The notes: generated by a model not told the origin, from the sequence alone. 64,000 nt of DNA from a virus (IMGVR_UViG_3300045996_002451:19172-83171); one strand, 5' to 3'. Shown: positions 8,777 to 40,910, counted from the first letter of the stretch. Made by a program: numbers and translations.

Positions 8777-9053
8777 TGGAAGCTCTCTTTCTGAACAGTG
8801 ACGAGGCTCTCTAGGAGCCGGGTTGTTACACGGGTATCAACAGTGGAAGGAGGGAACCCGTAACCCCAAACCTTCCCCAACCCTACACGCAATCTAGCGG
8901 TCCGCACCCTCTGAAAAGAGAACGGACCGCTTAACTTTCCTACCTGCACCTACTGTTCCAGCGAGGCTGTACGCGAACGCGCCTGCTTGTGCGGCCCACT
9001 TACCGCGGCCTTCTGGAAAAGGGATAGCCAGTATGAAGTTGTGAATGGCTTGG

Positions 9054-9407
9054 TTAAGCCGGAGAAAGCTTACGGTGATCCATTTCCGCTTCCATGGCTG
9101 CTCGGAGCAGCGCGTCCCCTGCGGCGTCTAGGTCGAGGGGCGTGGTGAACTGAAGGGACTTGCCGAGCAGGGACAGCATGCCGTGCTCCTTCAGGAGCGT
9201 GGTGACCGCATCTGCCGTCTCTTGGCAGGTCAGTCCGGTGCTGTCTATCTCCCAGCACTCTGCACCCACAGGCCGGGCGATATACCCGATGGGAGCTTCG
9301 ACTTCCTGAAGCTGACCGCTCTTCAGGTTGACTTCTGAGACGGTGCGGGTCACGAGGAACATCTCGCGGGTGCTGTTGTGCAGCGGTTTCAACTCAATTT
9401 GAGACAT
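9054..9407 (-). CDS. hypothetical protein
   Basis: Likely start MSQIE after AGGAG. Confidence 0.6.
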   Translation of the reverse strand: MSQIELKPLHNSTREMFLVTRTVSEVNLKSGQLQEVEAPIGYIARPVGAECWEIDSTGLTCQETADAVTTLLKEHGMLSLLGKSLQFTTPLDLDAAGDALLRAAMEAEMDHRKLSPA

Positions 9408-9585
9408 GGACGTAGCTCCTGACATAGTGAGTGTGATGGCAACGCTTCGGGTGTCATGTGGACACCCGTAATCTGGGAGAGGGCGAGCCTTAAACTCCAC
9501 CCAACCTCACCCCTACACGCAATCTCCTAAGCTGGCAGAATCTCCCAAAAGAGAGAACCTTCCCTCACTTTCCAGCCCTGACCAT

Positions 9586-9616
9586 AAAAATACCCCTGCC
9601 TGTAAGGCAGGGGTAT
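9586..9616 (-). terminator. intrinsic terminator
   Basis: ATACCCCTGCC/GGCAGGGGTAT stem followed by a U-tract, downstream of the helicase. Confidence 0.75.
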
Positions 9617-9641
9617 CTCTACGTAGGAGATCAGCTAGTAC

Positions 9642-11315
9642 TCAGCGGTTAGCGAGGACCGCACTGATCATACTGGAGGCTTCTCCCTTGGTCAACTTGG
9701 AGACCGCATCCGGGTTGAAGCCCGAACGCACCAGCATCTTGATCTGCCCCTCGGTAGGCGGATCTTTGCGCCAGCGCGCACCACTGTCCGCGATGTAGCC
9801 CACGCTGGGCCAGTAAGCGCGTACTTCCCGGTCCGCTATGCGGAGTACCGGTCCGATCTCCTGGTCGTAAGGACCGCGCCCGTCCACGACCACGCCGCCT
9901 ACCAGGAACTGCAGCACCCATTGACCCATCAGGTCCTGGCGCAGGTGCGCTTCCTGCTGGGGTCCGCGCACGGCGGGATCATCGGTACGCACGCTGCCGC
10001 AAGACAGCAAGTAGTGCTCCGCGTTGATCTTCACCCAGGTCATGGTGCTGTTCTCCTTCACCTCGGCAGCAGGTTCTACCGCGGCGAAGAGATCCACCTT
10101 TTCCAGCACGGTTTGCAGCTCGCTGAAGGTGCTTGGCATCTCTTCCTTCAGTAAGGAGAGCTTGGACTCCACCTGATCCATGTACTTCGCTGCTTGGGAA
10201 AGACTCTTGCCTTGCAGGTCGAGCCCCGGGGGCAGGTCGAGGATCGCCGGAACGCCCGCGAGGGAGTGTTTCCGGCAGTTATCGACCACATCGATCACGA
10301 TCAGGTCTTCTTTACCGTCACAGATGCGCGTACCGCGACCCGTCATCTGCATGTACAGCGACCAGCTTTTGGTGGGACGCATCATCAAGACGCAGGAGAG
10401 CGGAGGGTGGTCAAAGCCTTCCGTCAGGACCTCTACGTTGGTGAGGATCTGCGTCTCACCCTGCTTGAACCGCTCCAGGATGGCGCGGCGTTCCTCTTTC
10501 CCCAGGTTGCCGTGGATGCACTCGGCTTTGAAGTTTTTGGAGCGGAACGTTTCGGCTACCATCTCCGCATGTTCGACACTGGCGCAGAAGACCACCGTCT
10601 GCCGGTTACGCGCCACGCTCCACCAGTGGGAGAGCGCTTTACGCGTGCGGTTCTGGTCCATGACCGCGGCAGCCAGCTCGCCCTGGTTGAAGTCTCCGCC
10701 GAGCGTCTTGACCTTATCCAGGTTGACGTCGGAGCGGACCCGGTAACCGCGGATGTCGCAGAGGTAGCCCTCTTCGATGGCCTGGCGGATCGGGTAGTTG
10801 TACACCTGACGCTGGAAAACGGAGGCCAGGTTCAGTTTATCGAGACGCTTCGGCGTCGCCGTGCAGCCCACCAGTTTGACCTCACCTGGCTGCATGGCAC
10901 CATAGCGCTTGAAGATCTTCACGTAGCTTTCCGCCACCGCGTGATGGGCTTCATCCGTGATGATCAGGTTCGGACTGAACCAACCCAGTCGCTTACCGCG
11001 GGAAAGGGTCTGTACGGAGGCGATCACCACCGAGCAGTCTTTCTCGGCATACCGATCGCCTTGTTCGATCCCGACTACGGTGCCGGGAGCCGACCGTTCG
11101 AACATCCCAGCAGCTTGATCGAGCAGCTCTTCCCGGTGCGCCAGGACCAAGGTTTTGCCTGGTCGCTCTGCCTGGAGCGCGTTGTGGATCGCTCCGAACG
11201 TGACGGTCTTGCCGGTCCCAGTAGGTAGCGCGTAGAGCACGCTGTGGAGGTCGTCGGCGGTGAACGCTTTGACGACCTCGTCACGCGCTGCTAGTTGATA
11301 AGGTCTCAGTTCCAT
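9642..11315 (-). CDS. SF2 DEAD/DEAH-box helicase (Irc3/ResIII-like)
   Basis: LRPYQ, PTGTGKT, DEAHH, TATP, LTEGFD, QMTGRGTR motifs. Confidence 0.92.
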   Translation of the reverse strand: MELRPYQLAARDEVVKAFTADDLHSVLYALPTGTGKTVTFGAIHNALQAERPGKTLVLAHREELLDQAAGMFERSAPGTVVGIEQGDRYAEKDCSVVIASVQTLSRGKRLGWFSPNLIITDEAHHAVAESYVKIFKRYGAMQPGEVKLVGCTATPKRLDKLNLASVFQRQVYNYPIRQAIEEGYLCDIRGYRVRSDVNLDKVKTLGGDFNQGELAAAVMDQNRTRKALSHWWSVARNRQTVVFCASVEHAEMVAETFRSKNFKAECIHGNLGKEERRAILERFKQGETQILTNVEVLTEGFDHPPLSCVLMMRPTKSWSLYMQMTGRGTRICDGKEDLIVIDVVDNCRKHSLAGVPAILDLPPGLDLQGKSLSQAAKYMDQVESKLSLLKEEMPSTFSELQTVLEKVDLFAAVEPAAEVKENSTMTWVKINAEHYLLSCGSVRTDDPAVRGPQQEAHLRQDLMGQWVLQFLVGGVVVDGRGPYDQEIGPVLRIADREVRAYWPSVGYIADSGARWRKDPPTEGQIKMLVRSGFNPDAVSKLTKGEASSMISAVLANR

Positions 11316-11757: not shown

Positions 11758-11758
11758 G

Positions 11759-15906: not shown

Positions 15907-17631
15907 CTAGATATTGCCCAGCGCAAATTGCCCCATGATGTTCGGTGTGGAGGCATCAAAACCCACACAATCGATCATTCCCCGATCTTTGGGATCGGCG
16001 ATGGTGAACCCGTTCGAGACCATACCGCACACGATCAGCTTGGCGTCGATGCCCATCTTCTCCCGGTACGCGCGCAGGGCCTGGACGGGCTGTACCGGTC
16101 CAGCGTACGTCTCGGAGTCCGTGTAGACCACGAAGACATCGAACGGGATCTTCTTTGCCAGCGCGTAACGCATCGGCAAGGAGCAGTCGGTGGAGCCGAA
16201 GGCAAGGTTGTTGACTTCGTTGCATGCATCGGTCAGCCGCTGGCGCGGACTGACTTTCAGCTCACTGATCCCATCGATCTCGTCCGCTGTTGCGCGGTTA
16301 CGCGCGTAGTAACCCCGGCTGCCTGCGGTGAAGCCCGTGATCATGTACTGGTCTTCGACGTTTGCCGTGACCAAGGCCATCGCCACGGAGCCCACGCGCG
16401 GGGAGAGCCCCTGCACGCCGCCGCACATTCCACCCGTCATCGAGCCCGAGACGTCCAGGGCCAGCATCCACCGCTTGCCGGTCGGCTCCACGTTCTTGAA
16501 CGCCAGGTAGAACGCCTTGTCCAGTCCGTCCACGATCTGACGCACAGGAGACCAGACGTTGTCCCCTTTCAGGGATCTGCCGGACTCGTACGTCTTCATC
16601 GCAGTGAGCACGGCGATCGGATGGATCCGCGAAGCCGCCAGTCCTGCCGGATCGGTCAGCTTGTTCACCACGAACTTGGTGGCGTCGGACATCGGTCCCA
16701 GGACTCCGTAGCGGGTCATGTTCGCCAGGTTGCGCAGCATCGCCGTAAGACCCATCTCCGGCAGCAAGGCCTCCCAGACAGCCGGGCTGGTCTTGTACTG
16801 CGTCGGGATGCACTCGTGCGGCAGCCGGAACTCCTTGAGGACCGTGATCACGTCCTTTTCGGTCGGTACCCGCTTGATCAGCTCGAAGCCCCGGATCATA
16901 TCCGGCAGGTGCTGCGAAAGATCTTCGTACATCACCGCACCGGTGGACAGCTCGCTGCCGCACTTGACGCCCTTCTTGCGCGAGACCGTACGCGTACCGA
17001 GATCGCCGCCCACGGACCAACGCATCGCCGCGTCCTTGCTCTTGCTCTCCGTGATCGGATGCGCGAGGCGCAAGACGTCGCGATGGCTCCAGCCGTCCCG
17101 CTGCTGATACTTGATCAACTGCAGGGCGAGGGAGTTGTCCGAGCGCTCCGTGTACCAGTTGGCCACGGCACGTCGCAGTCCTCGACCCCAGCCGCGCATG
17201 CCATCGACGTGCTCGCAGAACTGGAACAGGTGGGTGCCGATGCGACATACCTTGGGTAGTGCCGAGAGGGCAGCCGCCCGGGTCGGGTCGTCGCCATAGC
17301 TGGCCGCGATCGCCAGGACGAAGATCGCCTGGTCGTTCTTGGGTGCTCGCGCCTGATCCGAGACTTCCGTCACGATCTGTACGGTCCGGAGACCATCCGC
17401 CTTGACGCACTCCTGTGCCGCCTTCGCGTTCTCCAGGGTCAGCTTCTGCTGCGTGGCGTAGTAGGAACCGCCTTCACTTCCCAGGATGAGGAAGCGCTGG
17501 AGGCGGGTCCAGCAATCCACGCCAAAGACGACGCCTCCGGCACTGTTGGGGACCATGTCGGCTTCTCGGCCCGGGATCGCCCGCGTCTGCGGCGTCTTCT
17601 TGCTGCTCAATGTACCCTTCAGATAACTCAT
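15907..17631 (-). CDS. rsr: Ro60/TROVE RNA-binding protein (Rsr)
   Basis: NSAGG, RLQRFLILGSEGGSYY, GWGRGLRRAVANWY, KYQQRDGWSHRDVLRLAHP, vWA MIDAS LALDVSGSM, YTDSET, GFDAS. Confidence 0.96.
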   Translation of the reverse strand: MSYLKGTLSSKKTPQTRAIPGREADMVPNSAGGVVFGVDCWTRLQRFLILGSEGGSYYATQQKLTLENAKAAQECVKADGLRTVQIVTEVSDQARAPKNDQAIFVLAIAASYGDDPTRAAALSALPKVCRIGTHLFQFCEHVDGMRGWGRGLRRAVANWYTERSDNSLALQLIKYQQRDGWSHRDVLRLAHPITESKSKDAAMRWSVGGDLGTRTVSRKKGVKCGSELSTGAVMYEDLSQHLPDMIRGFELIKRVPTEKDVITVLKEFRLPHECIPTQYKTSPAVWEALLPEMGLTAMLRNLANMTRYGVLGPMSDATKFVVNKLTDPAGLAASRIHPIAVLTAMKTYESGRSLKGDNVWSPVRQIVDGLDKAFYLAFKNVEPTGKRWMLALDVSGSMTGGMCGGVQGLSPRVGSVAMALVTANVEDQYMITGFTAGSRGYYARNRATADEIDGISELKVSPRQRLTDACNEVNNLAFGSTDCSLPMRYALAKKIPFDVFVVYTDSETYAGPVQPVQALRAYREKMGIDAKLIVCGMVSNGFTIADPKDRGMIDCVGFDASTPNIMGQFALGNI

Positions 17632-17694
17632 TGCACACTCTCTTTCGGCCCGTTTACGGGCGTTACACGTGTATCACACGTCATACAACACTAC

Positions 17695-17848
17695 AGGGGA
17701 GGTAGGAGTCGAACCTACACGACACACTGCCAAGTCGTTATCTCAACAGTAGCAGACGGGAAAGCTAACGACACTCGACCGTACTGCTTATTACCGTGTC
17801 TGACCCAGGGTTGGTCCACTGGCGCTCTGACCATTAAGCTACTCCCCT
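17695..17848 (-). ncRNA. YrlA-like Y RNA (tRNA mimic)
   Basis: AGGGGAG/CTCCCCT acceptor, D arm, T arm GTAGG-TTCGACT-CCTAC; ~100-nt insert in place of the anticodon with a GGTCGAGTG stem. Confidence 0.7.
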
Positions 17849-17973
17849 AAGAAACCATGTCCGGGGTAGGACTCTCACCTATTTGATTTCAAGCAAGAAC
17901 GGGTGGCCACCCGTCTTCCTGCCCTCTCCGACTATACGGTCCCGAACTCTACCGAGCTGTTTCCAGCTCAACT

Positions 17974-18050
17974 CAACGTAGGGGGAGTTGAACACCCCGA
18001 CCTCAATCACGGTTTCCGTGACTGCGCTCTTACCCCTGAGCTATACGCCG
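17974..18050 (-). ncRNA. tRNA-like RNA without an anticodon loop
   Basis: D and T arms present; anticodon arm is the long hairpin CAGTCACG-GAAAC-CGTGATTG. Confidence 0.6.
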
Positions 18051-18087
18051 TGCTTAACTTAGTGGTCTCCACTGAGTTAAGGGGGGC

Positions 18088-18160
18088 CGATCGTGGTAGG
18101 AGTTGAACCTACGACCTCCAGGTGTACATCCTGGCGCTCTACCAACTGAGCTACACGATC
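18088..18160 (-). ncRNA. atypical tRNA or tRNA mimic (GTA in loop)
   Basis: Full cloverleaf, but the loop ATGTACA has A32/C37 and there is no long variable arm. Confidence 0.6.
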
Positions 18161-18167
18161 GACATTA

Positions 18168-18230
18168 GGACAGGCAAGTTGATTGAAGTGGGGAGTTCAT
18201 GCGAGATAACCCACCTCATTCGGCCCGTCT
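18168..18230 (-). ncRNA. minimal Y RNA-like hairpin
   Basis: 5' GACGGGCCGAATG...GGTTATC...ACTTGCCTGTC 3', a bulged Ro-binding-type stem. Confidence 0.72.
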
Positions 18231-18237
18231 TAAAAGT

Positions 18238-18615
18238 TTACTGGGTTGTGAAGCGGCAGTTGCTTTTACGCGTATGCTCCTTCAAGTTGACCTTGATCGG
18301 GCAGCGCTTGGAGTTCAAGCGTGCCAGGATGTGTCCCTCGTGCGGGTTGTAGTAGTGCAGCGGTGGATAGTCCCAGATCGCAACCTCAGTCTTGCTCCAG
18401 TCCATCACGAAGCTGCGCTCGGCAAAGCCCCAGATGACGCCATGGTTGTCCCGTTTGAGCAGCACGTAGCGGCGCCAGCGGGGGATCGGGATCTTTTCTG
18501 AAGACAGGGCACGTTGGACGCCCCGCTTATTGAACGGACTACCCCCGGTGACATCAGTGCCTGTGTTCCACATGGCGCGTTGGATGCGCGCGCGTTTGGT
18601 GGTCAGTTTAGGCAT
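18238..18615 (-). CDS. basic hypothetical protein
   Basis: 125 aa, AAGGAGG RBS, K/R-rich. Confidence 0.6.
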   Translation of the reverse strand: MPKLTTKRARIQRAMWNTGTDVTGGSPFNKRGVQRALSSEKIPIPRWRRYVLLKRDNHGVIWGFAERSFVMDWSKTEVAIWDYPPLHYYNPHEGHILARLNSKRCPIKVNLKEHTRKSNCRFTTQ

Positions 18616-18639
18616 GACAGCCTCCTTGGGGTAAATGTT

Positions 18640-18904
18640 GCGGCCTGCGGGAATCTAACCCACACTCGTTAGGTGTACTGCGCTTACTCGCTTGCTTGAA
18701 CATCCCGTCTGGAATGGCGTGAAGGAAGACGGGCCTACCAGGTCTGCACTGAAGCGCACATAGAGGCCGCTTAGTCCGCACGAATGAGTCCCCGTGCCAT
18801 ACGGCAACTCAGTCATTGTACCAAGCGGTGATCTCTAGACAGGGACCTCGGACGATTTGCAGTCGCCCTCTTAGCCTGTGCTACCAACTCTGCTCTCGGG
18901 CCGC
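18640..18904 (-). ncRNA. 265-nt RNA with a tRNA-like frame
   Basis: GCGGCC/GGCCGC terminal stem, T-arm-like GTGGG-TTAGATT-CCCGC, Cys-type hairpin GGCGA-CTGCAAA-TCGTC. Confidence 0.55.
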
Positions 18905-18922
18905 ACGAAATTGTTTGACTAC

Positions 18923-19065
18923 GCCAGGGGATGGACTCGAACCACCGACCCGTAGTGTATGGTAACCTTCAAACGCCGACCCCGACCAGGGTAGTTAGCC
19001 CTCGCTGAGATAAGTGTGTAAGAAGACATGTTGGACTGCTGCTCTACCAACTGAGCTACCCTGGC
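18923..19065 (-). ncRNA. YrlA-like Y RNA
   Basis: GCCAGGG/CCCTGGC acceptor, D and T arms; insert with a pyrimidine tract and GGGGTCGGCG...GGTTACC. Confidence 0.75.
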
Positions 19066-19072
19066 AAGGGAG

Positions 19073-19137
19073 TCCGGGCAAGTGGTTGCGGCGAGGGGTG
19101 TTACTTGAAAGGGTAACCCTCATTGCTCCGGCCCGAA
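19073..19137 (-). ncRNA. minimal Y RNA-like hairpin
   Basis: TTCGGGCCGGAG...GGTTACC...ACTTGCCCGGA. Confidence 0.7.
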
Positions 19138-19144
19138 CAAAAAC

Positions 19145-30029: not shown

Positions 30030-30566
30030 CTACTTACCTCGGTCGAAGACCGCGTTGTGGATGTTCCGATCCCAGCAGGCTTGTTGTGACAACCAGCGCA
30101 ACTGGGCCAGGTACTCACTGCCACAGTATACGCGCCCGGACGGCTCGTCGACATAGATCTGCTCAGCCGGAAAGTACCGGTGGTAGTGCGTCTCGGCCAG
30201 ATGCATGGTCGTCTCAACGTCCAACGGACCGTAGGTCTTGCGCGGATGCCGGATCCCCAGACGTTCGGCAAGGAGGGTTGCGTCTCGCAGGCTGACCTCC
30301 AGGTGATGCTGAGCTGCTACGCTGCGGACGTGCTTGATGGCTTCAATGATGTGGACGCCCTTTTCGATCTGCTGCGTCAGGAGCAGGCCTACATCTTCGA
30401 GGGTCATCGTGACTGCGTTGATGCAGCCCAGGGTTATTACCTGCTGGACTTCGTCCACATCGATTAGCTCGATGTGGTACAGCTTGCCTTCAAGCTGTAC
30501 CTGTACGGTCATTGCGGAGTTAGCTGGTTTCGTCCAGATCTGCTCTTGGAGTTGTTCGAGATTCAT
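30030..30566 (-). CDS. hypothetical protein
   Basis: Likely start MNLEQ after GGAG. Confidence 0.55.
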   Translation of the reverse strand: MNLEQLQEQIWTKPANSAMTVQVQLEGKLYHIELIDVDEVQQVITLGCINAVTMTLEDVGLLLTQQIEKGVHIIEAIKHVRSVAAQHHLEVSLRDATLLAERLGIRHPRKTYGPLDVETTMHLAETHYHRYFPAEQIYVDEPSGRVYCGSEYLAQLRWLSQQACWDRNIHNAVFDRGK

Positions 30567-30924
30567 CAGGGTTCTCCCGGCGAGCTTTCGCCGCCCGTGC
30601 GCGAACACGCACCGCTTCGATGCGCGCGTGGTATTTGCCGTGCGCGTACGCGCTGTCGTAGCTGACCGGTAGCTCCGGGTCGCTGTACACAAAGTCATCG
30701 ATGTTCAGGCAGTAGATATCTACCTTGGGCTGACCTGCGCAGAAGCGCCCACCCACGATGCGTTCCGGGTCGTTTGGATCCCGTTCCAGGATCTGGAGGC
30801 ACCCATCCCAGTAGCCCACGTTAATCACGTTGATCTCTACGATATCCATGTTGGCTACGCATGCCTGCATCTCGCCGCTGGGATCGGCCTCTTGTAACAG
30901 GCGAATCACGTCTTTAGTCTTCAT
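30520..30924 (-). CDS. hypothetical protein
   Basis: 134-aa ORF in the gene run. Confidence 0.6.
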   Translation of the reverse strand: MKTKDVIRLLQEADPSGEMQACVANMDIVEINVINVGYWDGCLQILERDPNDPERIVGGRFCAGQPKVDIYCLNIDDFVYSDPELPVSYDSAYAHGKYHARIEAVRVRARAAKARRENPDESRTTPRADLDETS

Positions 30925-30929
30925 CGGTG

Positions 30930-31475
30930 CTAGCCTTCAAGTCGCTTGGGCCGTTCCATCCGAGGTATCCGGTCCAGGGAGACCAGGAGCAGGTAGACTA
31001 CCGTCCAGAGCTGGCAGTTGTTCTGGATCTCCGCCGACCACTCCCGAATGTTCTCCGTGTAGTAGCTACGGATGAGTTCTTTTGGGAAGCCTTCGAAGTA
31101 GCAGTCCGCCAGCTCGTTACCCGTGTACTCCGGATCGAGGGGCGGGGTGACAAAGCACAACCGACTGAGGTCCGCGACGATGGGCTGCTCGGAGAGCACC
31201 GTCAACTTCCAGTTGTAGAAGTTATTGCGCAGGATCAGTCGGAGTCCCCAGTCCGGACGGTACAGCTCAAAGACCGGCAGCACGATGCTGCACGACCGGT
31301 GTTCGCCCACGATGTGGATCAACTGATCCCGGCGCAGTTGGTAGTCCATGCCGATACCCATCAGGGCGGCAATGTCCGACCGGATGAACGCGACTTGTTG
31401 AGTAGCGCCGTCTTGATGGTCAGCCGGTTTACTCAACCAACGTGCGGCCCACCATTCAGTCAGAGGTATTCTCAT
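30930..31475 (-). CDS. hypothetical protein
   Basis: 181 aa, GAGGA RBS. Confidence 0.65.
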   Translation of the reverse strand: MRIPLTEWWAARWLSKPADHQDGATQQVAFIRSDIAALMGIGMDYQLRRDQLIHIVGEHRSCSIVLPVFELYRPDWGLRLILRNNFYNWKLTVLSEQPIVADLSRLCFVTPPLDPEYTGNELADCYFEGFPKELIRSYYTENIREWSAEIQNNCQLWTVVYLLLVSLDRIPRMERPKRLEG

Positions 31476-31726
31476 TAGCTAGGTCCTCTTTCTCAGTATC
31501 AGAAAAGCCGAGGCTTTCCAGCCTCAAATGGAGCCGGACGTTGGGGAGCCGCTGGGGCAGGTGGCTTAGGTCCACGATCTTACCGCGTTCCAGTCCGGGT
31601 CCCAGGTGAACTTGGTCAAGTGCGACATCCAGTCGCGTCAGGAAGTCCTGGGCCTCGGCTTTGGCCAGCGGGGTAGCAGGGGTCTGCAGCACTTCGTCGT
31701 CATCCAAGGGAAAGGACACAGCGCAC

Positions 31727-32092
31727 CTACGCTTTCTGGTTCAAGAGTTCCCGAGCGTATTCACGTACGGCCTGGATGGCCGCTTTCTGACCGCAGTGCA
31801 GGGTGAGGGAGACAAAGTAGCTGGAGATCTCCATCATTGCTCCATCCCGGAAATAGAAGCCAGGCAGGTACTGGTATCCTTCTTTGAAATCACCTTTCGG
31901 CTGCACGTGCTGGTACTTACCAAGATGACCCACCAGACAACGTTGCGTGTTGTCTGGTGTGACGTACTGCAGAGCACACCAAGCAGACTCCGGCGCATCG
32001 ACGACGCGTTGTAGCGCGGCGCGTGGCTGCTCGGCGAGTAGCGCTTTCAAGAGCTGGAAAGTGAGGACCTGAGCGGGTTGACAAAAGGCCAT
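31727..32092 (-). CDS. paralog family B member
   Basis: ALQRVVDAP...RCLVGHLGKY. Confidence 0.72.
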   Translation of the reverse strand: MAFCQPAQVLTFQLLKALLAEQPRAALQRVVDAPESAWCALQYVTPDNTQRCLVGHLGKYQHVQPKGDFKEGYQYLPGFYFRDGAMMEISSYFVSLTLHCGQKAAIQAVREYARELLNQKA

Positions 32093-32093
32093 C

Positions 32094-32477
32094 TTAGTCC
32101 GCTTTCTGTAAGAGCTTCCGGGCGTCATCCTGGATCGCCACGATCAAGTCGTGAGTGTCGTAGCGTTGTCCAAGATGGATCGCCAGGCTGGAAAAACGCA
32201 TCATCGCGGGTTCATAGGTCTCGAACCCGGGCAGTTGGATGGTCCGCCTGCCATCAGGATGCTCTTGATAATCGCCGAGATGCCCTACCAGGCAGCGGGT
32301 ACCAGTGTCGCTACTGAGGTAAAACGACAGGTTCCAACTCTCTAAGGGCGCCGAGACCACCCGCTGCAAGGCGTCTGCGGGTTGTAGGCGGAGCAAGGAC
32401 AGCAGTTCCTGATACTGCTCGGTTAAACGGAACGGAGGCTGTTGTGTTTCAGCATGGATGCGCTTAAGCTTGAACAT
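32094..32477 (-). CDS. paralog family B member
   Basis: ALQRVVSAP...RCLVGHLGDY. Confidence 0.72.
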   Translation of the reverse strand: MFKLKRIHAETQQPPFRLTEQYQELLSLLRLQPADALQRVVSAPLESWNLSFYLSSDTGTRCLVGHLGDYQEHPDGRRTIQLPGFETYEPAMMRFSSLAIHLGQRYDTHDLIVAIQDDARKLLQKAD

Positions 32478-33184
32478 CAGAATACCTCAGTGGTAGGAAC
32501 GCAGGAGTCGACCATCGGGTTGTAGACTGTCGGGATGTCAACTGCCGAAGTGCGCCCTGCTAAAAGACAGCGGGCAGTGTGTTGAACCGCCCTCACCACA
32601 TTCGGCGTGGTGTGGGTCGTGGTGTTCAGGATGAAGTTGAACGAGAGGTTGTGCGTATGGTAGTTAGCCGGGCTGAAAGGGCTGTAGCCCGGCTCAAAAT
32701 CATAAACAACGTCGGCGTTCGAGGGCGCATATCGGTAGTTGCCCAGGTGTCCGACCAGGCAGCGATGGCCCAAGCGATCGCAGTAGGCCATCGGGTTCCA
32801 CTTGTTCAAGGGTGCATCCAGGACGCGTTGTAGCGCCTCGTTGGACTGCTGGGACAAGCCGTTTGCCAGGGGCACATAAATCGGGTCGTCCAATACCTTT
32901 AGCACCGAAGGGTTCAGGAGCGGACGAGCCAGCTCCTCATAACCCTGCTGGGGATCCGGGCCATAGACGGCGTCATTGCCGGGGTAAGAGACGCGGACGG
33001 ACAGCCCGTTGATCAGGTGCGTCTCGGTGGCATCGCCCCGATCGACATTGCGGACGATGTGCCATTCTTCCAGCTCGCCGTAGGTGCGGCCACACAGGCT
33101 GGCGAGCACCTGATCCAGGTAGACGTGGTCCGGATCGTTCAGCGTGCAATCATCCTCTATCCAGTACGGAATCAAAGTGTGCAT
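32477..33184 (-). CDS. paralog family B member with an N-terminal extension
   Basis: ALQRVLDAP...RCLVGHLGNY. Confidence 0.72.
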   Translation of the reverse strand: MHTLIPYWIEDDCTLNDPDHVYLDQVLASLCGRTYGELEEWHIVRNVDRGDATETHLINGLSVRVSYPGNDAVYGPDPQQGYEELARPLLNPSVLKVLDDPIYVPLANGLSQQSNEALQRVLDAPLNKWNPMAYCDRLGHRCLVGHLGNYRYAPSNADVVYDFEPGYSPFSPANYHTHNLSFNFILNTTTHTTPNVVRAVQHTARCLLAGRTSAVDIPTVYNPMVDSCVPTTEVF

Positions 33185-33195
33185 CGAGTTACCTC

Positions 33196-33537
33196 TTACG
33201 TGTTGGCGACGCCGATTCCGGCGATCAGGAAGTCGGCGTAGCTAAGGACGCGCATGAACGCTACGTCCCACGTTACGTTTTTTCCCGGGTCAGGCGGGTT
33301 GGTGAGTACCGAGATCTTGTACAGCAACTGCCAGTTACCGTCCGTGGACAGGCGTTGCAGCACCACGGTGTGCTTGGTGTCGCCGCGTAACACCTGGGTA
33401 GGCATGACGCGCCAGACAATGTTGCGCTCCCGATCGAAGCGGTGTAGCGCTGACAGCTCGCTGTTAAACACCTTCCAATTTCCATTGGCAAAGTGCAGCA
33501 TGCTTTGGATCCCTTCATCTAGCGTAGTCAATGGCAT
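33196..33537 (-). CDS. hypothetical protein
   Basis: 113 aa, AAGGAG RBS. Confidence 0.6.
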   Translation of the reverse strand: MPLTTLDEGIQSMLHFANGNWKVFNSELSALHRFDRERNIVWRVMPTQVLRGDTKHTVVLQRLSTDGNWQLLYKISVLTNPPDPGKNVTWDVAFMRVLSYADFLIAGIGVANT

Positions 33538-33548
33538 CGAACTGCTCC

Positions 33549-33806
33549 TTATTCGAAATGGATCATGCGCTGAGGACGTCCCAGGTTGTCGCGCTCTTCA
33601 CCATCGTAGCTGATTTTGGGTCCGGAGAGAGCGGTCAACGCGAAGTAAGGCGGGGAGATCTCAGCCTTCAGCTCACCTGATTGGATGCGGGCCAGGACCT
33701 CTTCCGGCGTCAGGCCTGCGTACTGTTCGCGCACCTGGGTGGCTTGTGCATCGTCCGGGACCTCAATGGTCACACACTGTCGAATCTGCGTATACAGCTT
33801 GCCCAT
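33549..33806 (-). CDS. hypothetical protein
   Basis: Likely start MGKLY after AGGAG. Confidence 0.55.
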   Translation of the reverse strand: MGKLYTQIRQCVTIEVPDDAQATQVREQYAGLTPEEVLARIQSGELKAEISPPYFALTALSGPKISYDGEERDNLGRPQRMIHFE

Positions 33807-34095
33807 AGGTTGGCTCCTGCTTAAAAAGGATGCGGGGCTTGAGCCACCCCGCCGAGAGTTGTTCGTCTTACGCACCGTCTCAGGCAGTCGTTCACACCGA
33901 CTGGTAAGTTCGTCCACAACTCAGGCGCCACTGGTTTCTTTCCCGTGGCCGGAAACGCTATGCCCTGTCTTTCCTGGAGAGGTGGTAGCCGTGGCTACGC
34001 TCCAGTGTCTCGAGGCCCGTGGTAGCGCTGCCCGCGCCTGCCCGTTCACGTCGCAGGTGTATGTAGTTGTAGCTTGGCCCGCCACAGCCAAGGGG

Positions 34096-34491
34096 TTAGG
34101 ACGCGGACTTAACCCGCGCCTTCAAGATCTGCTGCGCGGCTGTCTGTAGCGCAGCGACAATCACCGGCGTAACGTACCGGTCTTCCAGTTCGAGCGCCCA
34201 GTCCGAGTAGTCGTACATCCGGGGAAGGTGGCTTTCATAGCCAGGTTCGATGAGACGACCCCACCTGCCTTCAATGAGCGCGTACCGGTAATCACCCAGG
34301 TGTCCTACCAGACAGCGGCGCGTGTCTACCGTGTTGAGGTAGTGACCGAAGTCCCACATCCCCACGGGGTTGTCTACGACGCGCTGGAGGGCGGCATCCG
34401 GCTCTTCCTGGAGGTAAGTCACGATCTTCTGGAAGGTTGGATCTTGCTCGATCGGTGGCGTCTCTGGGGTTGCACTTAGGGTCTCAGCCAT
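34096..34491 (-). CDS. paralog family B member
   Basis: ALQRVVDNP...RCLVGHLGDY. Confidence 0.72.
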   Translation of the reverse strand: MAETLSATPETPPIEQDPTFQKIVTYLQEEPDAALQRVVDNPVGMWDFGHYLNTVDTRRCLVGHLGDYRYALIEGRWGRLIEPGYESHLPRMYDYSDWALELEDRYVTPVIVAALQTAAQQILKARVKSAS

Positions 34492-34933
34492 CGTTCGGTT
34501 CCTTTCGTAGATCGAGCAGCGTTTGCGCCGCCTGGCGTAGCGCAGCGATCACTAACTGTTCGTCGTGTCCCTCGATTAGCCTAAAGCACAGGCTGGAGAG
34601 TTTGCCTGGAATCTGCTGGAACGGTTCGTAAAGCGGCAGCCCGCTGAGGAGCCACTGGTCGTCTACACGCTTAAGCGTAAGGTCGCCCAGGTGTCCGACC
34701 AGACAACGTGGACCAGCAGCGTTGAGGCTGCGGTACTGATCGAAGTTCCATTTGCCGGGTTCAGCCTGAACAACCCGCTCCAGCGCCTCGGCAGGCGCCG
34801 TGGAGATCAGTTCGAGCACTTCCTGGAACACGGGGTCCAGATAGAGCGGGTGCAGAAAGTATTCGGAGCTGTCCAGTAGTGGACGTAGGGCCTGTTCTGC
34901 GGTTTCGGTTAGGGGGAAAGACGTTTGTTTCAT
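34484..34933 (-). CDS. paralog family B member
   Basis: ALERVVQAEP...RCLVGHLGDL. Confidence 0.72.
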   Translation of the reverse strand: MKQTSFPLTETAEQALRPLLDSSEYFLHPLYLDPVFQEVLELISTAPAEALERVVQAEPGKWNFDQYRSLNAAGPRCLVGHLGDLTLKRVDDQWLLSGLPLYEPFQQIPGKLSSLCFRLIEGHDEQLVIAALRQAAQTLLDLRKEPNDG

Positions 34934-34963
34934 GGCAGCACACCTCTTAAAAGAAAACGAGGG

Positions 34964-35326
34964 TTAACGGTAGAGACGCTCCCCGCAATGACTACAAAAG
35001 TGGTCCGTACAGAGTGTGCTCTGTTTACAGACCGGACACGTAGAGTCTGTGCGTGCGCCACACTCCGGGCAATAGGATGTCAACCCACCGGAATGGAAAC
35101 GGTTGATCTGATGTTGATTCAAACACTGGACAGGAGTTTGAACCAACGCGTTGAGTTGGGACAACAGTTCGGAAGCCACTTGGGGTTGGAGTGCGTCGTT
35201 TTCTAGCTTATTCAGCAAGCTGGCGCTTTTACCGATCAGGGAAGCTAGATCTTTCTGGGTAAGTCGCATGCGTGTCCTAAAACGCACCACTGCTTCACTG
35301 TTGTCCAGCTCGAAGTTAGTGTTCAT
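34964..35326 (-). CDS. XRE-type HTH regulator with a double zinc ribbon
   Basis: LTQKDLASLIGKSASLLNKLEN; four CxxC motifs. Confidence 0.8.
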   Translation of the reverse strand: MNTNFELDNSEAVVRFRTRMRLTQKDLASLIGKSASLLNKLENDALQPQVASELLSQLNALVQTPVQCLNQHQINRFHSGGLTSYCPECGARTDSTCPVCKQSTLCTDHFCSHCGERLYR

Positions 35327-35358
35327 GGCAGCACACCTGTTACACGGGTAACTCCTGG

Positions 35359-35856
35359 CTAGAGCGCCAGGAGCACGTTCGGGTCAAAGTACAGGGGATA
35401 CTCGAAGTACCCTAGATAGTCCAAGCGGCCAAAGCCGTAGGTCATGCTGCCGCAGATGCCGGTGGAGCAGCTCCAACGCTCGCCCGCGTAAAGACGGCGC
35501 AACGCTTCTTGTTCGTCATCTACGGGGGTAGCGCACAGGCGGCAGCAGCCATCCGAGCAACAGATCGGCGCGTCTGCATCCAGTATGGCTCCGTTCCGCA
35601 CCTGAAAGAGGAAGTACTGCATCAACCAGCGACCATTGCATCCGGAGTAGACATTGAAGCCGTACCCGCTGGTGTGCATCAAGAAATCGACCGGATCCCG
35701 GTAGTAGTCATCGGTGGCCTGGTCTTTGGCGTCCTGGAGCACCTGCTCTTTGGACTCGCCGTAGATGGCACCGAGTACATCCAAGTACTTATCCTCGTCG
35801 GCGGGCACCGCAACCCACTGAACCACGGGCGTGACTGTTTGAGACTCGTTGGGCAT
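35359..35856 (-). CDS. Cys-rich hypothetical protein
   Basis: Likely start MPNES after AGGAG. Confidence 0.55.
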   Translation of the reverse strand: MPNESQTVTPVVQWVAVPADEDKYLDVLGAIYGESKEQVLQDAKDQATDDYYRDPVDFLMHTSGYGFNVYSGCNGRWLMQYFLFQVRNGAILDADAPICCSDGCCRLCATPVDDEQEALRRLYAGERWSCSTGICGSMTYGFGRLDYLGYFEYPLYFDPNVLLAL

Positions 35857-35913
35857 CGAAGTAGCTCCTGGAAAAGAGGAGGCAGGCACCCCGCAGGGCA
35901 CCTGCTGCGTAGC

Positions 35914-36501
35914 TTAGATAACGGAGACGCGGTGCGTGAGAGGGTCCAGATTGTACAGGGTCCGCTCCAGCTTGCGCGCGACCGCGACACAGTTTCCGGT
36001 GCCGCCACGTGTACCATCCCAACAAGATAGGACGCGCTTACTCCGCTCGACCATCCAGGTGTTGCGCGCGTTCAGCAAGGCCGGTGCGTTCGGCTCTTTC
36101 TGCTCCTGCGCCGCGGCCTCATTGAGCCGCACCATCAATTCGGAGAAGGTGATCTGCTCATCCCGATCGGTCAGCCAGATCTCGTCCGCCTGCTGCACGA
36201 TGTTGCGCCAGCGGATCTGCGACTCCAGCGGCCAGATCAAGGGCTGGGTCAGGAACGGCACCGCGGCGATGAGGCGCACGTCCGGGTGAATCGACTTGAG
36301 CTGCAAGACTGCCTCGGCAGCCCACGTGTCCCAACCCAGCGCCATCCCCGACACACAGGTCCGCATCGACACGTTGTAGAAGCGCTCCAGGGTCTGGTAG
36401 AGGACCGGGTAGAGCACGGAATGGAAATTGGTCTGGTCGTTATACCCGCCGAGTTTGACTGGGCGGTGGCCTGTAAAGCACAGATGGTACCGAGGAGTCA
36501 T
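35914..36501 (-). CDS. SLOG family protein (YspA/DUF1273-like)
   Basis: CFTGHRP, SGMALGWDTWAAE, RNTWMV, WDG..GGTGNCV. Confidence 0.88.
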   Translation of the reverse strand: MTPRYHLCFTGHRPVKLGGYNDQTNFHSVLYPVLYQTLERFYNVSMRTCVSGMALGWDTWAAEAVLQLKSIHPDVRLIAAVPFLTQPLIWPLESQIRWRNIVQQADEIWLTDRDEQITFSELMVRLNEAAAQEQKEPNAPALLNARNTWMVERSKRVLSCWDGTRGGTGNCVAVARKLERTLYNLDPLTHRVSVI

Positions 36502-37456
36502 TGCACCGTCTCCAGGAGAGAGCACCCACCCCGCCTTGCTCCAGTGTAAGGACTACCAAGTAGAGTAAAACTTAGTAGTAGGAACAGGAGTAGTAGCAGC
36601 GGTACGTAGGTCCGTATGGAAGTGAGGGTAGAGGAAGAGGTAGTAGATCTCTTCCCAGAGGGAGAGCTGCACCCCTTTAGCGCACCGCATGCGTAGGATC
36701 CGAAAGTCCTCGGAATGAGCAGCAGTAAGGGTATCAGTAGGCTTCAGAGCCATGAATCGTTCTCGCACGGTGGACACTCCAGTCGTAGTGAAGGGAAGTT
36801 ATTCAGTTGTAGGGACCTAAACGTTACATAGTAGCCTCCTAGGTGAGTGGTAACTCAAGAACCTTTACCCACACCCCTACCCGAAATCTTCCGGGTTTTA
36901 TCAACAATGTATAAGAAGATCACACTTCGTGCCTAAAACAGGCCCATACACCCTCAGATACACCCCTAAAAGAGGGATCTATACGCTTTCTGAACCTACT
37001 ATATCGCCTTTACACTAGGTACTTTTACGTCCAAGGGACGAGGGAAACGGCGAGCGTTTCTTAAGTTAAATGTAAGGGGAATGACTCCGTACACTCCCCC
37101 TACGACCCCTACGTGGTTACTTCCCTACTACTCCCGCTACATCCGAGTTGTTCTCTCTACTACTACGGGAAACGATAACTCCTGGAGCATAGTGGGGCGG
37201 GCGCAGCCTACTACGAGGCGGGCCACGCCCTTGTGATCCAGGAGATCCTTTACTCTTCCTAGTAGTAGAGAGTACTGGAGGTAGAGAGACCGGTGGGTAC
37301 ACGGGTAACGGAGTACCTCGGGTACTCCTGGGAGGAGACCGGAGAGCCTTACTCTGCAGCGTTCCAGAACGATCCATCAGCGGAGCATGATGCAGGGTAA
37401 GGGTAAGGAGAGTCCAGTAGTAGGAGAGTGCGCTCGCTTCGCTCGCGCCTTCGGCG

Positions 37457-37654
37457 CTACCGGATGCCGTGCTTCTCCAGCATCTGGGCGTAGTCCAGGA
37501 TGCCGCGGAGGTCGATGGTGGTCGCCTCCTTGATGTGTATCGAGCCGGAGAGGTTCCAGCGCTCCAGGGCAATCTGGGCGGCAGCCTGCTCATTCGGCGC
37601 TACTACCAGGTGGTGTCGCTCTTGCTCGTCGGTGAGCACATAGATATAAAGCAT
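37457..37654 (-). CDS. small hypothetical protein
   Basis: 65 aa, AAGGA RBS. Confidence 0.5.
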   Translation of the reverse strand: MLYIYVLTDEQERHHLVVAPNEQAAAQIALERWNLSGSIHIKEATTIDLRGILDYAQMLEKHGIR

Positions 37655-38400
37655 GCCGTTCCTTTCTAGTGAGGGAGCTTTCGCTCTACTACTACGGGAA
37701 AGAAGAGATGCGCTCGCTACGCTCGCGCCAGCGCGACGAGCTGGGTGACCTTGTCCAGCTCCTTAGTAGTAAGCTGAAAGTCTTGCAGGGTTTCGCCGTC
37801 CTTCATCAGGGACAACTCACACAGCTCGGGATGGTCGGTGTCGATCACCAGGTTGAGGTGACCATACTCCCGGTTGCCGCCATACGGACAGGGCAGGACG
37901 GCAGGCAGTGAGAACTTGATTTCCATAGAGGGCACCTATCTATGCGCAGGAAAAGGTGGGCCCCGGGAAGGGGCCGGTTAAAACAGGGAGAGTTGGGAAA
38001 GGGACGCGCTCGCTGACGCTCGCGCTGCGCGCGCCTCCCGGCTACGCCGGGCTAGCTCTTGCGCTAGCTCTTTCCGCGGCAGGGCCTCTTCGCGGGCCAG
38101 GTGCGTCAGCACCCGTCCGGCATCGAAGCCAAGCCGAATACGCCGGGCAGCTTCCGTCGCGACGCGCTGAAGGCGCAGTTGGTACGGAGACGGTCCGGAC
38201 TCGCTCATTTGCGGTTCCCCGCGGCCAGGCCCTTCAGGGCCACGACGCAGAGGACGATGACTGCCACGAAGGCGAAGCCGAGCAGATATAAGATGCCGCC
38301 GATCAAGGCTGCCATGTCTTCTTACTCCAGACGAAAAAACACCCCGCCCTCTACTACTAGGTAGAGAGCAGGGTGTCTGGTTGGTCCTACGCGTTACCGA

Positions 38401-38820
38401 CTACTCGTTGAAGTCGTTGTCCAGGCCGCCGTCATCGTAGTTGGCGCTGGTCTGGGCTTCCGGTCGTGCAGTTGCCGCCGCACGGTTGTCGCCCTGGCCG
38501 TCTTTCGGCTTGTCGATCAGCTTGATGTTGTCGGCCACGAACTCGACGGCACGGCGCTTGTTGCCTGCCTGGTCCTTGTACTCGCGGACCTGGACCTTGG
38601 ACTCGACCGAGACCATCCGGCCCTTGGAGCCGTAGTTCGCGATGTACTCGGCGGACGTGCGCCAGATCACGAAGTCCAGGAAGTCGGCCTCGTAGACCCC
38701 TTCCTTGTTCTTGTAATCGCGCGTGAAGGCGATCCGCACGTTCACGTAAGCGACCCCGCCCGACGTGTACTTCAGTTCCGGATCGTTCGCCAGTCGGCCT
38801 ACGCCACAATGCTTGTTCAT
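38401..38820 (-). CDS. ssb: single-stranded DNA-binding protein
   Basis: MNK..VGRLANDPELKYT...ADF...W...AE...SKGRMVSVE; acidic tail. Confidence 0.93.
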   Translation of the reverse strand: MNKHCGVGRLANDPELKYTSGGVAYVNVRIAFTRDYKNKEGVYEADFLDFVIWRTSAEYIANYGSKGRMVSVESKVQVREYKDQAGNKRRAVEFVADNIKLIDKPKDGQGDNRAAATARPEAQTSANYDDGGLDNDFNE

Positions 38821-38973
38821 GTCTCTATTCTCCGTCGTTAAAAAGAGCCGAAGCTCCCCGGTGTTTTGGGAATCTCTCCCCCACACCCCTACACGCAATC
38901 TTTCGGATCAGGTCAGCCTTACGCTTTCCAGCCCCTCAAGGCACCACGTGTAGGGGAAATCTTACGCCTAATG

Positions 38974-39597
38974 TTACCCTTTTTCAGCGTCGAAGTGACC
39001 TACCGACAGCAGCGTAGCCCCCTTCATATCGGTGTCCTGCGTCTGGGACTCCGGCGCGGTGACCCGCTTCAGGGACGCCCCGCGGAAGTGCATGCTGTAG
39101 CACTGGGAGAAGTAGAAGCAGACGTCCGCCAAGTTAGCGGCGTTGAACTTCGCGTAGCTGAGGTCGCAGCGGCGGAAGTGGCACTTGATCCAGAGGCTGA
39201 CCTCGCACCGGGTCCCGGTCAGGTCGCAGCCTTCGAACTCGCACTGCTCCCACTGGGTGCTGGACAGGTCGGTGGTGTAGAACTTGCACCCGAAGAAGAT
39301 GCACCGTTCGAACTTCACGCCCCGAAGATCCTGGTTGCTGAAGACCAGGCCGTAGAAGCTTTCGCCCCGCACGGTGCCTTGCTTGCGGAGGCGCGCCGCC
39401 AGGCGGTCCATCTTGCGGGCCGCAGCCCACTGGCGGTTCCACTCGCGGCGGCTCTGCCGCTCTTGCGGGGTGCCGCAGCAGAGCGTGTACAGCTGGCTGG
39501 GATGCAGCGCGTAGAACACGATCAGGCACAGCCAGTGCCAGGCGCCTTCCCAGAGGCTCGTCTCGTTGTGGTTGGTATTCAAAATAATAGCGCTCAT
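38974..39597 (-). CDS. pentapeptide-repeat protein
   Basis: F/L-x-x-C/A-x pentapeptide repeats after an N-terminal hydrophobic segment. Confidence 0.8.
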   Translation of the reverse strand: MSAIILNTNHNETSLWEGAWHWLCLIVFYALHPSQLYTLCCGTPQERQSRREWNRQWAAARKMDRLAARLRKQGTVRGESFYGLVFSNQDLRGVKFERCIFFGCKFYTTDLSSTQWEQCEFEGCDLTGTRCEVSLWIKCHFRRCDLSYAKFNAANLADVCFYFSQCYSMHFRGASLKRVTAPESQTQDTDMKGATLLSVGHFDAEKG

Positions 39598-39690
39598 GGA
39601 GATACTCCTGGAAAGGGAAAGAGAGAACCGAGGATGATGAGGCAAGCGGGCCCGACCGGGGCCAGACCCGCTTGCGTAGAGAGACACGGA

Positions 39691-40041
39691 CTAGCCGGGG
39701 AGCTGCGGGTTCGGGACGTGCACCACAGTGGCTTGCGGAGCCTGCTGCGGTTTGGCCTGAGCCTGACCGGCAAGTCCCTGGAAGAGGCCACCCACAAACG
39801 CGGTAGCGCCCGAGATCACCGAGTTGCCTACGGTACCGACCACTTTGCCTGCGGAGTCCAGGAACTCCCGACTCTGGGCCGGATCGAACCAGTTGATGCC
39901 TGGCTTGTTCTGGAGCGCCGCCATGAGCTGAGCGTTCTGCTGCGCGAGCATCTGCTGCTGGGCCAGGAGCTGCTGGATCTGCTCGTTGGTGAGCGCGGGA
40001 GCGGAAGCCTGGGCTACGGGAACCTGATTCGCGTCTTGCAT
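39691..40041 (-). CDS. Gln-rich hypothetical protein
   Basis: 116 aa, AAGGTG RBS. Confidence 0.6.
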   Translation of the reverse strand: MQDANQVPVAQASAPALTNEQIQQLLAQQQMLAQQNAQLMAALQNKPGINWFDPAQSREFLDSAGKVVGTVGNSVISGATAFVGGLFQGLAGQAQAKPQQAPQATVVHVPNPQLPG

Positions 40042-40135
40042 GGAACACCTTTCGTTACACGTGTAACCGTTTTACGCTAGAGACAGGGTTGCTGGGTAGA
40101 GGGCTAGCGCACCCCCTACCCAACCCTACACGCAG

Positions 40136-40744
40136 CTACTTGACTTTGATGCCGAGATTGCTCAGCACGCGCTCCTTCGGCACGTGGCACGCAATCATCT
40201 TCGAGGCCTTGAACGCCACCGGGCAGAGGTGCTCGGCGTTGCCATACTGACCGTGCTGGTTGCACTTCTCGCCCGCGGCCAGCGGGGTGCCACACGAGCA
40301 GCGCTCGAACGTCGGCAGCGCGCGGACTTGCGCCCACACATCGTTGCTCTCGATCTTCCGCTCGAACTGGCTGCGGGCGCTCTTCTTGGCCACGTGGCCA
40401 TCCGCCAGCACCTGGAGCACGTCCAGGATGAACATCGGTCCCGTCAGCTCATCGATCGAGGCGTCTTCCGGCAAGGTCATCCCGAGCGTGTGGGCCAGCT
40501 TGGTGACGCGGGCTAGCGCAATGATCCGCACCTGGTCGGATGCACTGCTGACCGGCACCTGCTCTACCGGAGCCGAAGGCTCCACGGTGGTGCTCACCGA
40601 CTCCAGGACCGCACCCGCGGCCTCGGCTGTCGCCACCGCTGCTTCATCCAGCTCATCGACAAACGGGTTCTCCAACTCCACGGGCGGCGGAACCATCTCG
40701 TCCGTCACGGCAACCTGCGGGTCGTTCTTCGTCTTCGTCTTCAT
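40136..40744 (-). CDS. hypothetical protein with a Cys/His cluster
   Basis: GAGGAG RBS; CSC...CNQH...HLC...CH. Confidence 0.65.
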   Translation of the reverse strand: MKTKTKNDPQVAVTDEMVPPPVELENPFVDELDEAAVATAEAAGAVLESVSTTVEPSAPVEQVPVSSASDQVRIIALARVTKLAHTLGMTLPEDASIDELTGPMFILDVLQVLADGHVAKKSARSQFERKIESNDVWAQVRALPTFERCSCGTPLAAGEKCNQHGQYGNAEHLCPVAFKASKMIACHVPKERVLSNLGIKVK

Positions 40745-40910
40745 GTCAAGCTCCTCTTAGTACGCAAGTCAACTGGGACCCATGTCCCCACACCCCTGCA
40801 CGCAATCTCTCGAGCCGGTACCCGTAGACGTGGAGCGGACCAGGCTGAACGGGATGAACGCTCAGCCGGGCACACTCCACGCCCCAGGTCGGGTGGGGTG
40901 CCGAAGGCAC

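Follow-up and report, generated by a model that had tools for sequence, protein, structure and literature searches.

A short sequence recurs in the gene gaps of an uncultured phage (IMGVR_UViG_3300045996_002451), each time in the same orientation, and raises the question of what kind of signal it is and what reads it. The stretch analyzed, hereafter the window, is 64,000 nucleotides long and corresponds to bases 19,172-83,171 of a 211,171-bp IMG/VR phage record that is estimated to be 98% complete. The recurring sequence, AGATTGCGTGTAGGGGTG, is 18 bases long and is named M1 here, with the coordinates of its copies given as window positions. Judged from number, orientation and placement of the copies, M1 is probably a phage-specific promoter, whichever enzyme reads it. 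The more specific reading developed below, to which we assign a probability of roughly 45%, is that M1 may be a compact, contiguous promoter that a two-barrel RNA polymerase (RNAP) of the phage itself reads without the bipartite contact typical of sigma factors. The phage encodes two such polymerases, one fused and one split.

M1 is sharply delimited. With as many as 3 mismatches allowed, seven copies were found where dinucleotide shuffles predict 0.10, and an eighth (40121-40138) emerges at 5 mismatches, its first three bases being the TAG stop of the upstream gene. A pattern search of the whole genome gave eight reverse-strand matches and no forward-strand match. A weight matrix derived from the eight copies was applied to the complete 211,171 bp on both strands; these sites scored 22 to 36 bits and the next best site 14.2 bits, which is the noise level of the shuffles. 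Because the scores separate this cleanly, the family numbers exactly eight, without degenerate outliers. The information content is high at positions 1 to 18 only, with a weak KGG at positions 19 to 21, and the flanks from −30 to +60 are unrelated, so the copies have been conserved individually and are not the leftovers of segmental duplication. Three of the eight copies are identical, the core is TTGCGTGTAGGGGTG, and copies 4 and 7 depart from the consensus mainly within positions 1 to 5. M1 is the sole nonpalindromic, strand-specific repeated motif found in the genome; a search for a second strand-specific promoter class in the M1-free gaps and in the plus-strand gene block brought out only two palindrome families. 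An exact 17-mer was matched once in IMG/VR (L009), as a lone antisense occurrence inside an open reading frame (ORF) of 1090 amino acids (aa) on a contig without an RNAP homologue, and was rejected as chance.

All eight copies lie in gaps between minus-strand genes at window positions 8,878-40,808, a span of 32 kb; with noncoding DNA making up approximately 14% of the genome, the chance of eight intergenic copies out of eight is about 1e-7. Genes were called with a codon-usage model trained on long ORFs. The first copy in transcription order, copy 8 (40791-40808, 1 mismatch), comes directly after the operon that contains the gene for the 1196-aa fused RNAP and stands 46 nt before a 202-aa gene (40136-40744). 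Copy 7 (40121-40138; 5 mismatches [positions 1-5, 16]; 22.4 bits) overlaps the TAG stop of this gene and precedes a 116-aa gene (39691-40041) by 79 nt. Copy 6 (38884-38901, exact) is 63 nt before the SSB gene (38401-38820), and copy 5 (36872-36889, 2 mismatches) is 94 nt before the GTG of a 74-aa ORF (36553-36777), which the gene caller initially missed and which is followed by a YpsA/SLOG gene. Some 30 nt past copy 5 and before this ORF there is a start-stop mini-ORF (36836-36841, minus strand) composed of AGGAGG, six bases and ATG TAA. Copy 4 (29785-29802, 3 mismatches) is 41 nt before a 167-aa gene (29240-29743), copy 3 (23811-23828, exact) is 50 nt before a NADAR-domain gene (22915-23760), and copy 2 (9508-9525, exact) is 100 nt before a 117-aa gene (9054-9407). 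Copy 1 (8878-8895, 1 mismatch) is 101 nt before the ATG of a 265-aa gene, the first in the row containing the split RNAP. All eight are on the minus strand, and M1 occurs neither upstream of the 1196-aa gene nor in the structural, late block on the plus strand.

A sequence-only reading of the window had described eight copies confined to minus-strand gene gaps, all downstream of the fused RNAP gene and none in the plus block. The whole-genome scans agree with it on each of these points, returning exactly eight sites with an orientation that is far from random (8 minus versus 0 plus). Other details needed revision. The TGGG extension, given in brackets with the motif, is present in only three of the eight. 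The copy assigned to a block at 36.8 kb is there, and its target is now placed 94 nt downstream, at the 74-aa ORF. The macrodomain label of the gene after copy 4 was not upheld, as this gene has no Pfam match and only a PHROG 335 "phosphatase" match (E 2.9e-15).

The position of M1 within the gaps bears on its function. From its 3′ end to the next start codon the distances are 41, 46, 50, 63, 79, 94, 100, and 101 nt (72 ± 23), and a Shine-Dalgarno sequence is found at every one of these starts, whereas the distance from the preceding stop codon is loose, ranging from −3 to 567 nt (160 ± 167). This tightness on the downstream side counts for a promoter. It also runs counter to the idea that M1 is a termination or pause signal for a phage polymerase, comparable to the 26-nt terminator motif of the virion RNAP of the Thermus phage P23-45 or to the T7 class II signal. 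That M1 is intergenic and co-oriented, and that the upstream gene's stop codon falls within one copy, would suit such a signal, for which P23-45 provides a precedent in the form of conserved terminator motifs. However, an intrinsic-terminator test detected no T run after M1 or after the hairpins that follow it, except weakly at copy 6; the terminator-like hairpins, where present, are upstream of M1 and not within it; and the P23-45-like GGGGCTAGCCCC terminator family is absent from this genome. We therefore consider a terminator improbable. A DNA site outside transcription, such as a strand-specific nick site of the T5 or phiKMV type or a site bound by a structural or replication protein, is still harder to reconcile with this geometry. 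Phage DNA nicks do occur at strand-specific consensus sites of similar length, but a site of this kind offers no reason for the strictly intergenic location, for the spacing of 41 to 101 nt before starts or for the restriction to one temporal block, and it appears very improbable.

A second property of M1 is that it is contiguous. The block of 18 to 21 nt has no second conserved element between −30 and +60, a span in which every position outside the block carries less than approximately 1 bit of information, and in this it is unlike the promoters of sigma-70-family factors and like those of sigma-independent phage RNAPs. This bears on the possibility, unlikely in our view, that M1 serves the host RNAP as a promoter or activator box, the polymerase being redirected by a phage factor, either a FliA/WhiG-like sigma or a MotA-like early protein that would act on a −30 box. 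In favor of it, the TTGCGT within M1 looks like a −35 hexamer, several small proteins of unknown function are encoded in the early operon, and the phage does carry a gene for a 238-aa FliA/WhiG-like factor of the sigma-70 family (plus strand, 63876-64000 and on past the window end; L002:47-763). This protein has regions 2, 3, and 4, and its best match is FliA/WhiG, at scores below the trusted cutoffs. At M1, however, nothing is conserved at −10 spacing: as the sequence-only reading had held, no hexamer recurs consistently 16 to 18 bp beyond TTGCGT, the information content stays below 1 bit from +22 to +60, and there is no TAnnnT or GCCGATAA-like box. A block of 18 to 21 nt is also too short for both contacts of a sigma-70-family factor, whose elements are approximately 15 to 18 bp apart. 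The sigma gene itself is situated in the plus block between the tRNA array and the terminase gene, and its position just before the terminase and capsid genes suggests a late role. A scan with the sigma-70 consensus of Escherichia coli showed no enrichment anywhere in the minus block, and matches to this E. coli-type consensus are depleted at window positions 30001-50000 (0 versus 5.8 ± 2.2 in shuffles), a region that includes the 1.26-kb strand switch.

The surroundings of M1 were also examined at the level of RNA folding. The DNA directly after M1 is G rich and then C rich, and in some copies it pairs with the 3′ half of the motif. This downstream fold is unusually good relative to shuffles in three of the eight copies (z of −4.1 for copy 3, −3.2, and −2.3), and it is no better than the shuffles in the remaining five (z from −0.44 to +0.52). 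A conserved RNA hairpin was therefore rejected as a general feature of M1. These folds are relevant to the proposal that M1 acts as a single-stranded RNA site at which a nuclease or an RNA-binding protein makes or protects downstream 5′ ends. Such a signal would be strand specific and intergenic, as M1 is, and in the three copies just mentioned a very stable hairpin has the 3′ half of M1 as its 5′ arm. RNase E has a loose sequence preference that is matched by AG/AUU at the 5′ end of M1. On the other hand, no complementary arm is conserved, and in five copies there is no fold of note; an Rfam scan returned no family except tRNAs and transfer-messenger RNA (tmRNA); the distance of 41 to 101 nt from the start codon speaks against a translational operator covering the ribosome-binding site; and a linear RNA recognition site of 18 nt would be unusual for a phage.

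Copy 4 adds a further argument. A perfect 14-bp GC-rich hairpin followed by TTTT (29812-29843, minus strand; z of −6.45, 0 of 200 shuffles) ends approximately 10 nt upstream of it, an arrangement that reads as a terminator followed by a promoter. It leaves no room for another promoter, and little read-through RNA would bear M1. Taken as a whole, an RNA site is distinctly unlikely. Copy 1 is likewise abutted on its upstream side by a hairpin (8896-8931, minus strand; z of −3.97). Upstream hairpins are significant only at these two of the eight copies, and an upstream terminator was for this reason not retained as a general feature.

If M1 is a phage promoter, the question is which enzyme would read it. 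The candidate is the fused two-barrel RNAP of 1196 aa (43943-47533, minus strand), in which the N-terminal half has a beta′-like barrel with RxP...GDEDGD and the C-terminal half is beta/Rpb2-like. The split enzyme consists of a beta′-like chain of 553 aa (6210-7871, minus strand) that carries LGDEDGD and is a paralogue of the N-terminal half, and of a beta-like chain of 646 aa (3340-5280, minus strand) that is a paralogue of the C-terminal half. The RxP...LGDEDGD segment common to the 1196-aa and 553-aa proteins (E 2e-4) is reminiscent of the catalytic barrel in the largest subunit of RNAPs. None of the three proteins has a match in Pfam, PHROG or NCBIfam, and the profile of the fused RNAP found no match among PDB sequences. 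An exhaustive HMMER search recovered 24 homologues of the 1196-aa protein, all of them unnamed proteins from Logan/JGI contigs (P0009, for example, from a Logan contig of 235,730 bp, P0027 from a JGI contig of 250,471 bp, and P0006 from one of 47,822 bp), in which GDxDGD, E..MD..K, and D.GK.K...PFKG are invariant. An AlphaFold (AF2) model calculated from the homologue alignment has a mean predicted local distance difference test (pLDDT) score of 76. The best 50 of its 121 Foldseek matches (E ≤0.001) are all second-largest subunits of cellular or viral multisubunit RNAPs, and VIA-align superposes the C-terminal half on such subunits with Z of 16 to 18 over 400 to 440 residues. Run against the phage genome, the family profile has just two further matches, its C-terminal half to the 646-aa protein (E 1.2e-23) and its N-terminal half to the 553-aa protein (E 3.5e-11). 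The phage therefore encodes two two-barrel RNAPs, one fused and one split. As modeled, the 1196-aa protein is a real two-barrel RNAP, of which the 553-aa and 646-aa chains together form the split paralogue, so that the fused and split RNAP genes proposed by the sequence-only reading are borne out by model, structural matches and family profile alike.

A word-based protein search found no relatives of this enzyme, megablast and tblastn searches of GenBank phages gave no match, and scans of IMG/VR, JGI metagenomes, and GTDB genomes with the window protein, alignment A2 and homologues P0002, P0007, and P0027 as queries returned nothing. No paper on the fused-RNAP family was found in the literature. 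A Pol-I-like single-subunit RNAP did not appear in Pfam and PHROG scans of 37 ORFs of at least 280 aa, a set that leaves out the largest border-crossing ORFs, and a genome search with PF00940 was empty, but it had no working positive control.

The plan of the genome suggests an order of events. A minus block (genome bases 10-67,876) is followed by a plus block (69,141-195,775) and by a second minus block (196,365-210,592). Read from the strand switch, the first minus block begins with the operon that encodes the 1196-aa protein and a RecQ-like helicase, continues with SSB, a pentapeptide protein, the SLOG protein, the NADAR protein, Ro60, a CCA-adding enzyme, and another helicase, and has, beyond these, genes for the two split-RNAP chains (553 and 646 aa), RNase H, and nucleotide metabolism. 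The plus block is headed by a ParB-like gene (49970-50980, plus strand), which is followed by tmRNA, approximately 38 tRNAs, the sigma gene and then the terminase, major capsid and virion protein genes; this content marks it as the late block. Since the fused RNAP gene lies in the M1-free head operon and one M1 copy heads the split-RNAP row, the simplest order is that the fused enzyme comes first and the M1 genes, the split enzyme among them, come afterward. On this gene order, the fused enzyme is the most likely reader of M1. It would be made from the M1-free operon beside the strand-switch region and would then act at M1, which would head eight early or middle units comprising SSB, NADAR and macro-like ADP-ribose enzymes, the SLOG protein, a row with Ro60, Y RNA, and the CCA enzyme, and the split-RNAP row.

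The start of RNA at M1, its position and the enzyme involved are what we infer from features that can be read directly, namely, the number, strandedness, placement and geometry of the copies, the lack of a consistent fold and the existence of two two-barrel RNAPs that are paralogues. A promoter is preferred because it explains together the co-orientation, the intergenic sites, the narrow window before starts, the placement of two copies after hairpins, with no space for a different promoter, and the restriction to a single temporal block. Two windows may be considered for the transcript start, one being the G run at M1 positions 13 to 16, by analogy with T7, and the other lying approximately 10 to 12 nt past M1, by analogy with gp64, the nonvirion RNAP of P23-45.

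Several observations weigh against a promoter read by the fused enzyme. On average, M1 is located near the middle of its intergenic gap, and placement alone is thus compatible with a signal acting on the transcript that comes from upstream. The phage also has the sigma factor and several early proteins of unknown function, and the split enzyme could itself be the reader. A 10-bp hairpin followed by an AT-rich stretch separates the putatively M1-driven 265-aa gene from the beta′-like gene, and read-through into the split RNAP genes is for that reason uncertain. Alignment of the fused RNAP with P23-45 gp64 by hhalign covered only the catalytic DxDGD loop (E 0.056). The gp64 promoter core ...TCTAGGGGC... 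and M1 both contain TAGGGG, which is suggestive only, given that the match was noticed post hoc and that a hexamer is shared by chance within an 18-mer in approximately 0.4% of comparisons. A class of sites with the TAGGGG core alone shows no enrichment in the sense orientation beyond M1 (8 sense versus 7 antisense).

With these points counted, the proposal of the sequence-only reading that M1 is a promoter used by the fused RNAP stands in part: orientation, intergenic location and narrow start distance fit a promoter, and the choice of reader comes from gene order. Its further proposal, that the fused RNAP switches on the split one, agrees with the location of copy 1 at the head of the split-RNAP row and is weakened by the hairpin before the beta′-like gene. 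A bolder version, which we regard as doubtful, would make M1 the sigma-independent promoter of an undescribed family of single-chain two-barrel RNAPs and the middle step of a cascade of three to four polymerases, with an ancestral TAGGGG core. In such a cascade, an early signal would lead to the fused RNAP acting at M1, this to the split RNAP, and the latter to the host RNAP with the phage sigma, and the hexamer in common with the gp64 promoter would reflect an old, conserved way in which stripped-down enzymes read DNA.

Other elements accompany M1 or its candidate polymerases. Two tandem direct repeats of approximately 105 nt (49390-49645, minus strand) are found in the AT-richer strand-switch region and are unique in the genome; they share ...TTCCAAAA..TGATCC..TTCATGAGCACTACATG..., and each ends in a G/C-rich hairpin. 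They point toward the fused-RNAP operon and are therefore candidates for early promoters or small RNA genes. Several minus-strand genes, the fused RNAP gene included, start in the context (T/A)ACACTATG without a clear Shine-Dalgarno sequence (for instance, 47513-47519, 37188-37194, and 9423-9429 on the minus strand, others being outside the window). The region between the 265-aa and beta′-like RNAP genes (7872-7978, minus strand) contains, besides the 10-bp hairpin, a second short hairpin and TTTATATAGA, and the split RNAP genes may be controlled separately there. Large noncoding stretches with tRNA-like elements are found at 17632-22383 (minus strand), within the unit of copy 3 and downstream of Ro60 (15907-17631).

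The two palindrome families are distributed differently from M1. The first, parS-like and of the form TGTTACACGGGTAACA, has approximately 45 sites genome-wide, mostly intergenic and in both gene blocks, including in the window 792-807, 8824-8839, 26485-26500, 35338-35353, 40053-40068, 49898-49913, 56319-56334, 61387-61402, and 62810-62825. Two of these sites, at 8824-8839 and 40053-40068 (M2 family), lie between the ribosome-binding site and M1 copies 1 and 7, respectively, and are possible operators. The second family, GTATGACGCGTCATAC, has approximately 18 sites genome-wide, nearly all intergenic and sometimes adjoining a parS-like site; examples in the window are 2483-2498, 17671-17686, 49702-49717, 51048-51063, and 61791-61806.

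Two genes outside the window give context to the phage itself. An adenylosuccinate synthase homologue (L001:9618-10982 in genome coordinates, minus strand) adjoins ribonucleotide reductase and NAMPT genes; PHROGs place it in a PurZ-type family, and NCBIfam scores PurA above PurZ. The major capsid protein (L002:15784-16962, plus strand) is 30 to 35% identical to those of the Bacillus jumbo phage 0305phi8-36 and its relatives and of the Acinetobacter phage ME3, and the records of these phages gave no tblastn match to either RNAP.

The analysis lays out a regulatory map of an uncultured jumbo phage with two two-barrel RNAPs and a sigma factor. Should M1 prove to be the fused enzyme's promoter, it would provide a defined 18-bp template element for an RNAP family that has no match in Pfam, PHROG, or PDB sequences. 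Recombinant enzyme together with an M1 template would then allow sigma-free promoter recognition by a minimal two-barrel polymerase to be probed, and the two might serve as an orthogonal expression pair. The surprise for a specialist would be moderate, since this kind of signal is well known.

Comparison with described systems shows which of its features are familiar. The middle promoters of T4 also employ a phage-specific box to mark a temporal class of genes that follows the early ones. These promoters (MotA box plus sigma-70), however, keep a host-type −10 element 11 to 13 bp past the box, whereas M1 is without such a partner. The promoters of T7, T3, and SP6 are closer in form, being contiguous over approximately 18 to 23 bp, nearly invariant, strictly oriented and terminated by a G run (TATA-GGGA in T7, GTA-GGGG here). 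They are also located 40 to 100 nt before genes, sometimes just past terminators, and some of their transcripts carry a 5′ stem-loop. The likeness of M1 to a T7-class block that ends at the initiating G run is one of resemblance only, as these promoters are read by Pol-I-like single-subunit RNAPs, of which the ORF scans turned up none here.

Jumbo phages with two RNAPs, such as phiKZ and AR9, have conserved motifs upstream of their early operons (Sokolova et al. 2020, PMC7598289). They share with the present phage a large genome, two noncanonical RNAPs and a single motif that is detectable by sequence, and neither there nor here do later promoter classes show up in this way. Their early motifs, in contrast, are approximately 10 nt long, AT rich and centered at −10, while M1 is 18 nt long and GC rich, and their RNAPs are made of four or five split chains, compared with one single-chain enzyme, beta′-like half first, and one two-chain enzyme here.

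The closest published case is gp64 of P23-45 (Chaban et al. 2024, PMC10770324). In this phage, the virion RNAP gp96 uses an AT-rich TTATTCCTTTA, and the nonvirion gp64 uses a GC-rich core, CTAGGGGC, located approximately 10 to 16 nt before the mapped starts (PMC10770324, supplement). The catalytic loop DEDGD of the enzymes described here does not figure in the list of viruses with two RNAPs given in that paper. Outside TAGGGG, the gp64 motif and M1 are unrelated, M1 being longer (18 to 21 nt) and far better conserved, and the starts of P23-45 were mapped experimentally, whereas M1 is known from sequence alone. The parallels extend beyond the promoter. Both phages have a short, contiguous, GC-rich motif before early or middle genes and two anciently duplicated two-barrel RNAPs, and in both the early genes and an RNAP run away from a strand switch, with a ParB-like gene at the head of the opposite block of packaging and structural genes. 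The kind of signal is a familiar one, which here would belong to an enzyme family for which no promoter is known.

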